Below, one piece after another: positions 242 through 6,348 of a stretch of DNA of 32,000 bases (the stretch's first letter is position 1; every line of letters begins with the position of its first letter). The notes under the pieces were generated by a model. It saw only the letters and a program-made list of their open reading frames with translations, was not told the origin of the DNA and ran no database searches. The stretch comes from Vulcanisaeta distributa DSM 14429 (GTDB taxonomy: Archaea; Thermoproteota; Thermoprotei; Thermoproteales; Thermocladiaceae): positions 1,650,001 to 1,682,000 of the forward strand of contig NC_014537.1 of assembly GCF_000148385.1 (NCBI RefSeq), read 5' to 3'. A program made the translations under genes and the position numbers.

Positions 242-706
242 GTGGTTCGGGTAGTCATTGATAGGATAAGGGCTTGGGGTCATGTCAATGTTAGGGCTAG
301 GCATAGGACCACGATTGAGATTACAAGGGATGATTACTTAACGCCCAGGGGTGATTGTATAATCGGTATTAAGGCCGATAAGGGTTTATCGGGTATAAGC
401 CCCGAACTTAAGGAGATTATTAAGAAGGATGGGTCAATAGTGATAGCAATGTTTGTGGTTGACGACTATCTCGACTACGTAGTTGGTATGGGCTCCTCAA
501 AGCTTACCCTGGGCAATGATAATAAATTAATCATTAGGAGGAGTAATTACATTGATGATGCAACACTAATGATTAGGGCGAATAAGGCGGCGATTGATAT
601 AGATAGAAGGCTCATAGATAGGTTAAAGAAAGAGAGCCCCTTGACAGTCTATATTATAGGTGTTGACCTTGAGCAGGATAGAACAGTTGAAGGCGATGGC
701 ACTTAG
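242..706 (+). CDS. DUF371-family protein (conserved archaeal protein of unknown function)
   Basis: 154 aa with a GTG start. The signature ...HRTTIEITRDDYLTPRGDCIIGIKADK... is what I associate with DUF371/COG2090. The ORF overlaps the next gene by 11 nt. Confidence 0.6.
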   Translation: MVRVVIDRIRAWGHVNVRARHRTTIEITRDDYLTPRGDCIIGIKADKGLSGISPELKEIIKKDGSIVIAMFVVDDYLDYVVGMGSSKLTLGNDNKLIIRRSNYIDDATLMIRANKAAIDIDRRLIDRLKKESPLTVYIIGVDLEQDRTVEGDGT

Positions 707-1391
707 GAAGTTGATCCACGTTGCGCTATCTATATTCTTAATAATACCATTTATAGTGAACCTGAAGACCTACGGCATATCAACAACACTGTACTTCACG
801 CTAATTACCCTAGGCGTTTCCGTGATATACGTTATCCAGGTTAAGAGGCCAATAATTACTATAGTCCTGCTTGACGCATTAACAAGCGCCAGGAGGTCAA
901 TACTACAGCAGATCACTAAGTCGCCAATAGGCTCGGCAATACCGATAGATACCCTAGACGATGGATTAATGAAACTTGAGAAGACCGTTAAGGAATTACT
1001 TGAGAGTGTTGAGAGGGATTATGAAAGAAGAGGTGGCTACTTAGGCATTTTAATGGGCGCCATCGGAGTACTAATTAGTCAGTTGCTAACTGGTAATTAC
1101 GTTATTTACGGGATAATGTCAGTGATAGTCTACGATACAATGAGCGCGATAGGTGGTATACTCCTCGGTAGAGTCAGGTTGCCCTTTAGCAATGCCACCA
1201 TGGAGGGCACACTCGTGGGCATGGCATCGCTAGCCACAGTACTATTCCTATTCACGAATCAATTAATCGGCTCCCTGGCAGTAACAGTAGTTGCAGCATT
1301 AGCCGAAGCATACGGGATGGAGGATAACCTGGCGATACCAATAACCACGTCTTTAATGGCCATGGCCCTCAGGCTACCCGTAATTACGTAA
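696..1391 (+). CDS. polytopic membrane protein, CTP-dependent polyprenol (dolichol/phytol) kinase family-like
   Basis: The protein has multiple hydrophobic helices. Family-like motifs are YDTMSAIGGILLGRVRLPF..TMEGTLVG and the C-terminal AEAYGMEDNLAIPI (the DNLxIP-type end of COG0170/SEC59-like proteins). I prefer the ATG at 696 (MALRKL...) over the GTG at 660. Confidence 0.55.
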   Translation: MALRKLIHVALSIFLIIPFIVNLKTYGISTTLYFTLITLGVSVIYVIQVKRPIITIVLLDALTSARRSILQQITKSPIGSAIPIDTLDDGLMKLEKTVKELLESVERDYERRGGYLGILMGAIGVLISQLLTGNYVIYGIMSVIVYDTMSAIGGILLGRVRLPFSNATMEGTLVGMASLATVLFLFTNQLIGSLAVTVVAALAEAYGMEDNLAIPITTSLMAMALRLPVIT

Positions 1392-3376: not shown

Positions 3377-3404
3377 TACGCAATAGTCCTAGTAATCACT
3401 ATAT

Positions 3405-5798
3405 TTAAACACTAATTGATTGAGCGAAGTCCTGGTACTTCCTAAACGTGTCTTCACATATTATGCTTGTACCATCCCTAGATGACAAGTATAGCTTTAT
3501 CTTCTCAATAGCCTCAACGGCCGGGCACGACTTAATTATACCCTTAATTACCTCCTTATCCTTATCATTAACTCTAAGCTTACCCTCAATAACCTCATTA
3601 ATATAATCATCATAAATAGGCAATATGGGTATCACTGCATCAACGTTTTTCCTAATAAAGTCGGGATCCACAGACCATGGATTACTACTCTCAAACACAA
3701 TGACTAGGTGCTTAGCCCTGGCTATGTTCAAAAGCTTAAGCACATGGTTCAAATCCTCGTTAATCGCTCCCTCAAAGTTCGGTACGTGAACTATTGCATT
3801 ATCAATTATGGAAATACTTGGGTCCTTATAATCAATAATCGCCACTCCAAGGTGCTTAGCCACGTAGTTTATTAACGCGGTCTTCCCCGACTTAGGTGGA
3901 CCCACCACTAATATTGACGTTATGTACTTAAGCCCAAGGTTACTCATCATATCTCTTAACCTAATAGACGAGTCTATATAATCAATGAGTTTAGACTTTG
4001 TGTTCATACTTATTAAATCAACGGGATCAAGCGTAATCACAACATTGGCATTAACATTCTTACCCCTAGCCCTGGGCTTCTCCCTCGTCGTCTCGCCTTT
4101 CGTCTTTTCCTTACGTATCGAGGGCTTAGGACCCTCTAAGGCCTTTTCCTCCTTCGTAATACCCTTTTCCAGTTGTAAATTAGTGGCTACCTCATTATTC
4201 CTGTTCACGCTTTTCTCATTAACTACTCTGGCAGGTGTTGTCGTGATTTCCATATTTATTGGTGCATTACTTGTCTGAATTGGCTCCTCATTAATTGGAG
4301 TTGGGTTATTATTTAGGGCGTTAGTGTTAATGACTGTTTCAGTCATATTACCTTGCTTTAATTGTGTCTCCTCAACATTCTTAGTCTGCTTTTGATTAAT
4401 CTCCGTATTCTCCGTCTCACCATAAGTTATGACTTCAATGCCGTACTTCCTCAGTTTACTTATAACGTCATTATTACCATTATTTATTATTAAGGCATAA
4501 AGCTTCATGCGTTTGTTATAATCAATTAGACTTAATATCATGTCCTTATTAATTTCGTTCGGAATCAATACAAGCAATGCCTTCTCATGGGTTCTAATAA
4601 ACCAATTAACGTCATTTGTTAACTCATTGATATCACCCTTAATTATGAATCCCTTAGCTCTAGTTAATCCAAATAACGCCTTTGCGATTATTTCAACCTT
4701 ATCCTGAGGTAATGAGGCATGCAATGCTACTACTCCGGTCTTAGATAATATATTTACTATGGTATTCGCAAGATCAACATAGTCCTTAGGCAATTTCTTA
4801 ATCCAATAACCGTACTCGGTGATCATTAATGGATCAATTATTGGTATTACAATTGGGGACCTCTTTCTAGTACGTAATACTGATTGAGTCACTACCTTAA
4901 GCCTAGACTGCGCAATATCAAGTGCGTAGGTACTAAACCCAATAATTAGCGACCCAACGACAAGTAGTGGTGTTATGTAATAATTCCATAAATCATTAAT
5001 TAAGGGTATATAAAGAAGAGATACCGTTATTAATTGTGGTACTAAATTCATTATTATTTGCGAGATATCTCTACTCATTGGCCATATTATGGTGAGTCTC
5101 GGCAAATACCTGCTTATCAAAGGTGGTATTGTCATGATTATTATGAAGACGAAGTAAAGCATCACATTACTTAATTCACTATATATAGTGAGTAAATTAC
5201 CTGAACCATCGAATATTAGGGACTCCATTCCACGTACTAAGTTAAGGTTCGTTACGTGAATGACCATTATCGGCGTCCACGTAATACCCTGGTACGCAAC
5301 ACCAATTACGTACAGTAATGTGAGGAGTGAGAAGATGACCGCTGACCTGACACTATAGCCCTTTATAGATGGTGCTATTGAGAGGGGTATTGATAGCCAA
5401 TACAGCGGTGTGAATAGTAAGGCCCATGATACTATGGCTATGTCATTAATGACACCAGCCTCGGTTATTAAGTAGGTAGTTAGGAGCAGTGGCATTATTA
5501 GTAATGATGCATGGCCTAGGGCTGTAATGAATGTCAGCACCACATATGTTACTAAGATGGCTGTCGTTAAACCGTACCTTTTAAGTGCCGATGATGTAAT
5601 GATTAGGGCTAATAATGTTATAAATACGTAGAAAGGTATTATTGGAAAGACTATGTAAAGTAATGTGGCTGTAGCAGTATCCGTTAGCGTAAAGAGAATG
5701 TTTGTTGTTACGTTCTGTTTCACATAATAAAAACTACGAGATACTTTATAAACCGTTTCTCTCTTAATAATCGAAAGAGAGAAACTAAACGTCGGCAT
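3405..5798 (-). CDS. large polytopic membrane protein with a low-complexity linker and a C-terminal AAA+ ATPase module (unrecognised architecture)
   Basis: Track ORF 3405..5882. About 8-10 hydrophobic helices occupy roughly the first 330 residues. An N/T/E/K-rich linker is encoded at about 4044..4418. The Walker A motif VVGPPKSGKT lies at 3879..3902, followed by AAA-like VFESSNPWSVDPDFIRKNVD. The start is uncertain; MPTF at 5798 minimises the overlap with the upstream gene to 14 nt. Confidence 0.6.
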   Translation of the reverse strand: MPTFSFSLSIIKRETVYKVSRSFYYVKQNVTTNILFTLTDTATATLLYIVFPIIPFYVFITLLALIITSSALKRYGLTTAILVTYVVLTFITALGHASLLIMPLLLTTYLITEAGVINDIAIVSWALLFTPLYWLSIPLSIAPSIKGYSVRSAVIFSLLTLLYVIGVAYQGITWTPIMVIHVTNLNLVRGMESLIFDGSGNLLTIYSELSNVMLYFVFIIIMTIPPLISRYLPRLTIIWPMSRDISQIIMNLVPQLITVSLLYIPLINDLWNYYITPLLVVGSLIIGFSTYALDIAQSRLKVVTQSVLRTRKRSPIVIPIIDPLMITEYGYWIKKLPKDYVDLANTIVNILSKTGVVALHASLPQDKVEIIAKALFGLTRAKGFIIKGDINELTNDVNWFIRTHEKALLVLIPNEINKDMILSLIDYNKRMKLYALIINNGNNDVISKLRKYGIEVITYGETENTEINQKQTKNVEETQLKQGNMTETVINTNALNNNPTPINEEPIQTSNAPINMEITTTPARVVNEKSVNRNNEVATNLQLEKGITKEEKALEGPKPSIRKEKTKGETTREKPRARGKNVNANVVITLDPVDLISMNTKSKLIDYIDSSIRLRDMMSNLGLKYITSILVVGPPKSGKTALINYVAKHLGVAIIDYKDPSISIIDNAIVHVPNFEGAINEDLNHVLKLLNIARAKHLVIVFESSNPWSVDPDFIRKNVDAVIPILPIYDDYINEVIEGKLRVNDKDKEVIKGIIKSCPAVEAIEKIKLYLSSRDGTSIICEDTFRKYQDFAQSISV

Positions 5799-6348
5799 GT
5801 ATCGACTTAATGACGTCGATCCATGGATTATCTCGTATAAAATCAGGCAACGAATCATTATTAAACTGCTCATTATTAACAATAATGTCCTGCCCCTTCA
5901 CAGTACCAGGGATGCAACCATCCTTACTCCTCTTCTCAAGCTCCTCAACCTTCTCAATGAGCTTGCCAATTAATTCTTTAAGAGATTTCAATTCCTTTAT
6001 TAACTCACCTTGATAAGCGCTCTCATATAAATAATCATTCCTTAGTTGTGGATCAGGCATTCCCGTAATGATAGATAGGCTCACGTTAAGGATATTGCCA
6101 TAACCACCTAATAAGTATGAGCTATTGTTATTATTCATTTGAGTATCTACTTTATTTAATTGCTTATCATCATTCAGCTGATTTAATGCCTGGTCAATAT
6201 TTTTGGTGAAGGCCCTATACTTAGATATTGCCTTGTACACGGTGTTTACGGATATACCGAGCTTCTGAGCTATCTCCTTAGGTTTCAATCCCTCATTAAA
6301 GTAAAGCTTAGCAGCTAACTCCTCAGTCTTCGTTAATTTACTCGACAT
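5785..6348 (-). CDS. HTH DNA-binding protein with a C-terminal coiled coil
   Basis: The N-terminus LAAKLYFNEGLKPKEIAQKLGISVNTVYKAISKYR looks like a sigma-r4/LuxR/terminase-small-type HTH. It is followed by an N/Q-rich segment and the heptad-like stretch GELIKELKSLKELIGKLIEKVEELEKRSK. Confidence 0.6.
   Translation of the reverse strand: MSSKLTKTEELAAKLYFNEGLKPKEIAQKLGISVNTVYKAISKYRAFTKNIDQALNQLNDDKQLNKVDTQMNNNNSSYLLGGYGNILNVSLSIITGMPDPQLRNDYLYESAYQGELIKELKSLKELIGKLIEKVEELEKRSKDGCIPGTVKGQDIIVNNEQFNNDSLPDFIRDNPWIDVIKSIHADV

Follow-up and report, generated by a model that had tools for sequence, protein, structure and literature searches.

What kind of protein arises when a Cdc48-like ATPase module is joined to a large membrane domain, and does it act together with the small helix-turn-helix (HTH) protein encoded beside it? 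The question is raised by two genes in the window analysed here, a 32,000-nt stretch of the Vulcanisaeta distributa chromosome. The open reading frame (ORF) list places both on the minus strand, at 5785..6348 (187 aa) and 3405..5882, as the initial annotation had described; we refer to them as the HTH gene and the large gene, and all features of the two genes given below lie on that strand. The product of the large gene matches an NCBI entry, 'hypothetical protein [Vulcanisaeta distributa]' (P0001), with 100% identity, and the homologue search returned the HTH product as an identical V. distributa 'helix-turn-helix domain-containing protein'; judged by their homologues, both ORFs are genuine, conserved genes. 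We established the anatomy, homology, start site, synteny and distribution of the large gene. On balance, we think it probable, with moderate confidence, that it is a lineage-specific, vertically inherited chromosomal gene for a Cdc48-derived membrane protein, which would act as a nucleotide-binding scaffold or switch rather than as a threading motor, and that the HTH gene is an independent neighbour.

The ATPase part of the large protein is a Cdc48-type (classical-clade) AAA module with a helical lid, residues 566-772 (3408..4028). A profile of these residues searched against the PDB matched NVL, Cdc48, Rix7, AFG2, VAT, p97 and NSF with E values from 1e-7 to 1e-4, and hhalign aligned the module to a Cdc48-like alignment over 136 columns with a probability of 97.4% (E 1.5e-11). 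All nine full-length family members matched PF00004, with E 8.4e-8 at best; for the one from V. distributa the score is 20.2 bits, against a gathering cut-off of 21.2, and the match covers model positions 1-57 of 131. The nucleotide site was surveyed for its motifs in 15 family sequences, and the nine full-length ones were compared in alignment A6. The Walker A motif GPPKSGKT (3879..3902), read correctly from the V. distributa sequence at the outset, is kept as G-P-x-x-x-G-K-[ST] in every one of the 15 sequences. The strand equivalent to Walker B, AIVHVPNFE (3771..3797), reads [IV]H[VI]P[NS][LF] across the family; the initial annotation had noted VHVPNFEG at this site, and hhalign sets the P-N of 'IVHVPNFE' at the D-E positions, with Pro followed by Asn or Ser throughout. 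An acid occurs at these positions in 0/15 family sequences, and the hhhhDE pattern of classical AAA proteins is not found there. Another candidate for Walker B, 'SIIDN', came from a low-scoring HMMER piecewise alignment to AtCDC48A and was dropped because hhalign sets the Walker B strand at IVHV-PN and because two family members, P0042 and P0043, lack IIDN but keep IVHIPNL.

The mechanical elements of the module are altered as well. In the hhalign alignment, a gap of about 19 residues against the Cdc48-like profile falls between beta2 and the Walker B strand, where alpha2 and pore loop 1 would lie, and no aromatic-hydrophobic-Gly motif of pore loop 1 was found. The stretch comprising beta4, sensor 1 and a part resembling the second region of homology (SRH), LVIVFESSNPWSVDPDFIRKNVD (3639..3707), was identified from the family alignment and hhalign, which aligns the SRH region ESSNPWSVDPDFIRKNVD to Cdc48-type AAA domains. 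The sensor-1 position is polar (N/S/D/T) in the 15 sequences, and the Arg-finger position is occupied by R, K, E or a gap. The sensor and Arg-finger region that had been proposed here thus aligns to Cdc48-type AAA domains, but its Arg-finger position is not conserved.

These features bear directly on the function first suggested for the protein, that of an active AAA+ machine, embedded in the membrane and driven by ATP to work as an unfoldase, extractase or translocase, with DNA binding or scaffolding supplied by its partner, the HTH/coiled-coil protein. The classical-clade origin of the module and the invariance of its Walker A motif speak for such a machine; against it stand the Walker B acids absent from 15/15 sequences, the deleted alpha2/pore-loop-1 segment and the unconserved Arg finger, a pattern that argues against a threading motor and for assembly or switching based on binding. 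From these motifs we infer that the module would bind nucleotide without hydrolysing it and would have a scaffold or switch role.

The nucleotide pocket is nevertheless under selection of its own. H646-x-P648 is invariant, as are E678, P682, W683 and D695 across the nine full-length members in A6 (at D695, the fragment P0043 has G), and H646, P648, E678, P682 and W683 are retained even in P0042, a homologue with 27% overall identity, which indicates strong constraint around the pocket. Those residues could be taken as a rewired active site, in which His646 (of HVP) and Glu678 (where beta4 ends) stand in for the Walker B acids, and ATP hydrolysis or phosphate transfer drives a conformational change of the membrane domain for transport or gating. 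A weak secondary likeness to nucleotide-kinase-type P-loop proteins, namely AAA_18, adenylate kinase 9 and a dNMP kinase PHROG, agrees with this idea, but the kinase-type matches are confined to the P-loop region, whereas the alignment to Cdc48 extends over its 136 columns including the SRH. The arrangement has no precedent among the aligned AAA templates, and the variable Arg finger also speaks against it; we regard a rewired hydrolytic site as unlikely, though as deserving some weight.

The lid with C733 (in SCPAVEA), C756 and the tail ICEDTFRKYQDFAQSISV lies at 3408..3530, as defined by the family alignment and, for the tail, by comparison with 9m4n. The final 13 residues, TFRKYQDFAQSIS, are identical to the Cdc48 D2 tail at 7 positions in a low-score alignment to 9m4n that is not significant, and the resemblance of the tail ICEDTFRKYQDFAQSISV to the C-terminal helix of Cdc48 D2 (..DIRKYQAFAQTLQ) is suggestive only. 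Every family member, down to the 27%-identity homologue, keeps both lid cysteines, 733 and 756 (window ~3456-3527), which may pair in a structural disulfide or contribute to a redox or metal site.

Upstream of the AAA module, the protein consists of three further parts. The first is a polytopic membrane domain, residues 1-270 (4914..5723), with about eight predicted transmembrane (TM) helices. The polytopic character claimed by the initial annotation, with 8-10 hydrophobic helices, was borne out: about eight hydrophobic segments were found in residues 12-268, and their number varies from 7 to 9 with the way in which the 36-residue first segment and the stretch 52-115 are split. Because a K/R-rich stretch follows the last hydrophobic segment, the remainder of the protein is placed in the cytoplasm. 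The motifs FPIIPxY, ASLLIMPLLL and SWALLFTPLYWLSIPLS of the membrane domain are strongly conserved, the last of them (5379-5429) being invariant, and the family alignment contains no invariant charged residue or histidine in this domain. Neither Pfam nor the PDB profile search (0 matches at E<=10) provided a relative.

The second part, a middle alpha/beta domain of six beta-alpha units at residues 286-436 (4416..4868), has an AAA+/ASCE-like fold without Walker A, as judged from AlphaFold2 (AF2) and Foldseek. Modelled alone, it reached a predicted local distance difference test score (pLDDT) of 87.4 and a predicted TM-score (pTM) of 0.83. Its top Foldseek matches in the PDB and BFVD were nearly all AAA+/ASCE ATPases, with E values from 3e-4 to 3e-2 and TM-scores (TMq) of 0.4-0.58, among them Lon, Rpt subunits, TRIP13, RuvB, Rix7, katanin, Cdc48, DnaC and clamp loaders. 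The domain has no P-loop and no sequence similarity to AAA proteins, the PDB profile search returning chance-level matches only; the suspicion that it is a degenerate first ATPase domain is supported only at the level of the fold. An internal duplication was also considered, and comparison of the middle domain with the C-terminal AAA module gave no signal (hhalign probability 0.4%), nor did its comparison with Cdc48 by sequence (0.3%). The third part is a disordered, low-complexity linker, residues 437-565 (4029..4415), defined by pLDDT, composition and alignment. As had been noticed earlier, it is about 125 residues long and rich in N, T, E and K (N19 E16 T15 K13 in 120 residues); its pLDDT is 22-31, its length varies within the family, and it is nearly absent from P0042.

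This combination of parts had been described as an architecture not recognised before, and the profile searches that had been named as the check on that description did not contradict it: no library among Pfam, NCBIfam, PHROGs and PADLOC assigns the large protein to a characterised family, and our literature search found no paper on it. Classical-clade AAA modules seldom carry a large polytopic membrane domain, and to our knowledge none with this layout has been described in archaea. Closest by sequence are Cdc48, VAT and p97. In common with them, the large protein has two successive AAA-like alpha/beta domains, and it aligns with them in the helix preceding Walker A, beta1 and the P-loop, and again in the beta4/sensor-1/'xDPxxxR' SRH region and the lid; the Cdc48 D2 tail (..RKYQxFAQ..) also resembles its C-terminal tail. 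Unlike them, it carries the 8-TM domain in place of the N-terminal double-psi barrel (no PF02359 match), its first AAA-like domain lacks a P-loop, the disordered linker of ~125 aa separates the two domains, and the second has PN for the Walker B DE, a deletion that removes alpha2 and pore loop 1, and an Arg-finger position that varies. Given the missing N domain, the first domain without a P-loop, the divergent Walker B and pore loop 1, and the added membrane domain and linker, the large protein is not a member of the Cdc48/VAT/p97 family.

Functional parallels are found among AAA domains that bind nucleotide and hydrolyse it poorly. NSF D2 and PEX1/PEX6 D1 are domains of this type that hold a ring together, and FtsHi, a hydrolysis-poor AAA protein serving assembly, forms an analogous group with them. 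NSF D2 and PEX1/PEX6 D1 share with the large protein a conserved P-loop combined with defective catalytic motifs; they sit, however, in rings beside an active AAA domain, of which the large protein has none in its polypeptide, and they are not membrane-embedded as it is. FtsH, the i-AAA and m-AAA proteases and FtsHi/Ycf2 are, like the large protein, membrane-anchored and of the classical clade, and FtsHi/Ycf2 and AFG3L2 were among the Foldseek matches. The large protein differs from FtsH and the i-AAA and m-AAA proteases in its ~8 TM helices, compared with 1-2, in its archaeal origin, and in lacking both a pore loop and an M41 protease domain: no Peptidase_M41 (HEXXH) match was obtained, and the protein ends 7 residues past the lid helix. 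Archaeal membrane-bound LonB, whose AAA+ module is interrupted by TM helices and followed by a Lon protease domain, is likewise an archaeal AAA+ protein with membrane helices, but Pfam finds no Lon domain in the large protein. The lack of a protease domain thus separates it from both FtsH and LonB.

The family is very small and, by the searches made here, limited to Vulcanisaeta and one uncultured lineage. A word-index search of 5.8 billion sequences gave 10 matches, and an exhaustive search of 1.84 billion representatives with a hidden Markov model gave 11 matches below 1e-10, several of them fragments; among 185,579 GTDB species genomes, we located seven loci, all in Vulcanisaeta. A third search with P0042 as query revealed no further members and returned only actinobacterial Cdc48-like proteins matching in the P-loop region. 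P0042 itself is the distant full-length homologue of 623 aa mentioned above; it has the same layout of TM, middle and AAA domains with a short linker, and its gene comes from an uncultured relative, where it lies on a contig of 7.5 kb with ~50% GC.

In V. distributa the genes are arranged as dph6 - amidohydrolase - asparaginase (on the opposite strand) - HTH - large gene - hemC - ilvC. This order is kept in V. moutnovskia, in strains JCM 14467, 11216, 11217 and 16159, and in the metagenome-assembled genomes (MAGs) KMA_Bin30 and MG_3; in V. thermophila, too, the order holds, with a TnpB insertion sequence separating the large gene from hemC. At that locus (L018 7625-9484), a TnpB/Cas12f-like (PF07282) gene of the insertion-sequence type and a small ORF split the orthologue of the large gene from hemC. 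In the JCM draft genomes (L008, L012, L013 and L014), the tblastn matches to all genes, housekeeping genes and the large gene alike, are split into frame-shifted pieces, a pattern more suggestive of faulty assembly or sequencing than of pseudogenisation.

Outside the standard order the two genes separate. The gene for P0042 lies immediately upstream of hemC and is preceded by a gene for an RsmB-type methyltransferase instead of HTH, while the HTH homologue from the same sample is found in an unrelated context. The large gene occurs without an upstream HTH gene at two loci, L015 (that of P0042) and L009, the latter a Vulcanisaeta MAG contig on which a transporter gene of the major facilitator superfamily type takes the place of HTH. 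Conversely, HTH homologues occur without the large gene in four other contexts (L004/5, L006/7, L016 and L017): in one uncultured relative the HTH gene is directly upstream of hemC-hemA, and two further homologues lie elsewhere. Since each gene occurs without the other, the pairing represents genus-level synteny and not an obligate module, contrary to what the initial annotation had supposed, and the HTH family is the wider of the two. By gene order, hemC is the common anchor of the HTH and large-gene loci. The locus of the uncultured relative (L006 7001-11942, GCA_054027295.1) has the HTH homologue followed by hemC, hemA (GlutR), a class-III aminotransferase gene (hemL-like) and a TP_methylase gene, and this arrangement hints that the HTH family may be linked to tetrapyrrole genes rather than to the large gene.

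The synteny also bears on the suggestion that the region is the domesticated remnant of a virus or plasmid module, which had been based on its low GC content. The region is indeed the most AT-rich ~3 kb of the window, with 37.7% GC compared with 41.8% and within the lowest 1.4% of windows, so the earlier impression that it is richer in AT than its flanks holds for overall composition. It extends little to third codon positions: the composition check placed the low GC mainly at codon positions 1 and 2, where it reflects amino-acid composition, and GC at third positions (GC3) is 0.40-0.43, close to the 0.43-0.47 of the neighbours. A weak similarity of the HTH protein to the HTHs of terminase small subunits and transposases is the other point in favour of a mobile origin. 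Against it, the Vulcanisaeta loci with flanks all keep the gene order, the window contains no integrase, scans of the window with Rfam and for tRNA genes found nothing, and the matches in PHROGs, PADLOC and NCBIfam were all sub-threshold and of a generic P-loop or HTH kind. With a core chromosomal position and conserved gene order, descent from a mobile element is very improbable.

The start of the large gene bears on how it relates to the HTH gene. When ten homologues are aligned, the conserved part starts precisely at V27 (VKQNV...) of the long reading, which corresponds to GTG 5723. With this start, the gene spans 3405..5723 and encodes 772 aa, in agreement with the NCBI model, and not the protein of ~800 aa from an 'MPTF' ATG at 5798, overlapping the HTH gene by 14 nt, that had been considered. 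About 25 nt upstream of the GTG lies a TATA box, TTTATAAA (5745..5752), identified by comparing nine Vulcanisaeta loci; GTTTATA is invariant in 9/9 of them, ~25 nt before an invariant (A/T)TGTGAAACAGAACGT. In 6/9 loci, the upstream in-frame stretch has no ATG, GTG or TTG before a stop. Considering the invariant GTTTATA and the six loci without an upstream start, what looks like amino-acid conservation of the 'extension' in some annotations is promoter sequence translated as if it were coding. A crenarchaeal promoter layout of this kind drives leaderless or near-leaderless mRNA, and we infer that the large gene has such a crenarchaeal-type promoter with a predicted leaderless or near-leaderless transcript. 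The HTH stop codon (5785-5787) precedes the start of the large gene by 61 nt in V. distributa and by ~76-215 nt in other species.

Translational coupling of the two genes, which the initial annotation had proposed, is not supported, as the large gene has a conserved GTG start, its own TATA box and a 61-nt gap after the HTH stop. The same observations weigh on the ATP-driven machine with an HTH partner. The side-by-side, same-direction arrangement of the two genes at all Vulcanisaeta loci with flanks except L009 agrees with a partnership, but the invariant TATA box and GTG of the large gene, the lack of an upstream start codon in most species, and the occurrence of each gene without the other (four contexts for HTH, two for the large gene) do not. 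Together with the state of the nucleotide site, this makes the machine and its partner improbable. A second TATA-like element, TTTAAATA (3402..3409), overlaps the stop codon of the large gene, is conserved in the Vulcanisaeta loci and lies ~29 nt upstream of the hemC ATG (3376), which suggests that hemC has its own promoter within the 28-nt spacer between the two genes. It may be, then, that every gene in the row has a promoter of its own.

Returning to the scaffold or switch that we favour, the cytoplasmic part of the large protein would derive from a Cdc48-like tandem AAA protein. The first AAA-like alpha/beta domain would have lost its P-loop, and the second would have kept it while its catalytic and mechanical elements were remodelled, with HVPN for hhhhDE, no alpha2/pore-loop-1 and no conserved Arg finger. 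The resulting module would bind nucleotide without threading substrates, most likely as a unit of ATP-dependent oligomerisation or switching like NSF D2 and PEX1/6 D1, and would organise or gate the 8-TM domain. The HTH gene would be an independent transcription unit belonging to a broader regulator family, and the two would be neighbours in a conserved, hemC-anchored synteny, not translationally coupled genes. Several points weigh against this proposal. The full-length AF2 model is poor (pLDDT 52), and its C-terminal module reaches only 50-73; the AAA+-like label of the middle domain depends on weak Foldseek E values (best 3e-4) and has no sequence support; the invariant H646 and E678 beside the P-loop may form a rewired catalytic site, in which case hydrolysis could occur; and the conserved adjacency of the large gene to hemC is not accounted for.

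What is new about the protein, judged by its homologies, is the fusion of a Cdc48-derived, catalytically remodelled AAA module to a novel polytopic membrane domain. It presents a Cdc48-type tandem AAA stripped of the motor parts, namely Walker B, pore loop and Arg finger, in which the P-loop and a new His/Glu/Pro-Trp signature remain under strict selection. More speculatively, the large protein could stand for a class of Cdc48-derived pseudo-AAA proteins, embedded in the membrane and so far undescribed, whose new 8-TM domain would be gated or assembled by a nucleotide sensor rewired at His646/Glu678 and whose role would be tied either to hemC and the handling of tetrapyrroles or, in this lineage of Thermoproteales, to the proteostasis or organisation of the membrane; we put this forward tentatively and consider it rather unlikely in its entirety. 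A true nucleotide-gated membrane scaffold or transporter would be a new functional type for the AAA+ superfamily and would also give a handle on the conserved hemC neighbour in Vulcanisaeta. The narrow distribution, in one genus and one uncultured lineage, limits the general importance of the protein.

The HTH protein of 187 aa (5785..6348) consists of a sigma-70 region-4/HTH_23-type HTH, a low-complexity N/Q middle, a coiled coil and a C-terminal motif, as defined by the ORF, Pfam and its homologues. Residues 11-45 exceed the Pfam gathering scores of both HTH_23 (31.0 bits, threshold 24.6) and Sigma70_r4_2 (30.8 bits, threshold 25.7), and the HTH motif LKPKEIAQKLGISVNTVYKAISKYR, residues 21-45 (6214..6288), is almost invariant in the family; the N-terminal HTH of the initial annotation is thereby substantiated. 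The heptad coiled-coil segment GELIKELKSLKELIGKLIEKVEELEKRSKD, residues 114-143 (5920..6009), was read from the heptad spacing, and the search for homologues, of which 25 were found, allowed 19 to be aligned (A5). The 3-4-3-4 spacing is kept across these 19, and the N/Q-rich stretch, the heptad segment and the C-terminal motif recur in them, in line with the N/Q-rich middle and coiled coil first described. In the C-terminal motif LPDFIRDNPWIDVIKSI (5800..5850), P168, F170, R172, N174, W176 and D178 are almost invariant. This motif, LPDFIRDNPWIDVIKS (residues 167-183, window 5800-5850), remains almost invariant down to ~30% overall identity, and it had no match in Pfam or the PDB.

Among known proteins, the HTH protein resembles the small DNA-binding proteins with a sigma-70 region 4 or HTH_23 domain, whose Pfam gathering scores it passes, and it shares the signature 'KEIA..L..S..TVYKA' with its PDB relative 2lvs. 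Unlike sigma-70 factors, it lacks region 2: in Pfam and NCBIfam it matches only the region-4-type HTH, at residues 3-50. Unlike known HTH_23-type proteins, the family carries its own coiled coil and LPDFIRDNPWIDVIKS motif, a combination restricted to Vulcanisaeta and related uncultured archaea.

A scan of the window also revealed a perfect 11-bp inverted repeat, GTTTCTCTCTT-N9-AAGAGAGAAAC (5755..5785), which overlaps the HTH stop codon and abuts the BRE (TFB-recognition element) and TATA box of the large gene. The window holds no other such repeat, and 0 were expected by chance; by its sequence and position it may be either a candidate terminator of the HTH gene or a candidate operator. Its T/C-rich and A/G-rich arms are mostly conserved in nine loci and ~80% pairable. 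The repeat was examined for covariation as an RNA hairpin or operator, and the pair counts in the nine loci were not above shuffled or slid controls. A relation of regulator and target follows from the second possibility: the HTH protein would bind the palindrome and control transcription of the large gene, possibly also of hemC, with no physical or translational coupling between the two. The perfection and uniqueness of the repeat, its place beside the BRE/TATA, the conservation of its arms and the HTH gene directly upstream of hemC where the large gene is absent (L006) all suit this idea; it is opposed by the lack of covariation above the controls, by the absence of the motif upstream of the HTH gene itself, by the presence of family members in unrelated contexts, and by the fact that the repeat could simply be the HTH terminator. 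We consider such regulation possible and rather doubtful.

Elsewhere in the window, a DUF371-type ORF (242..706) overlaps the start of a 243-aa hydrophobic ORF (660..1391) by 47 nt, and the same pair adjoins ilvC in V. moutnovskia (L001 12982-14131).

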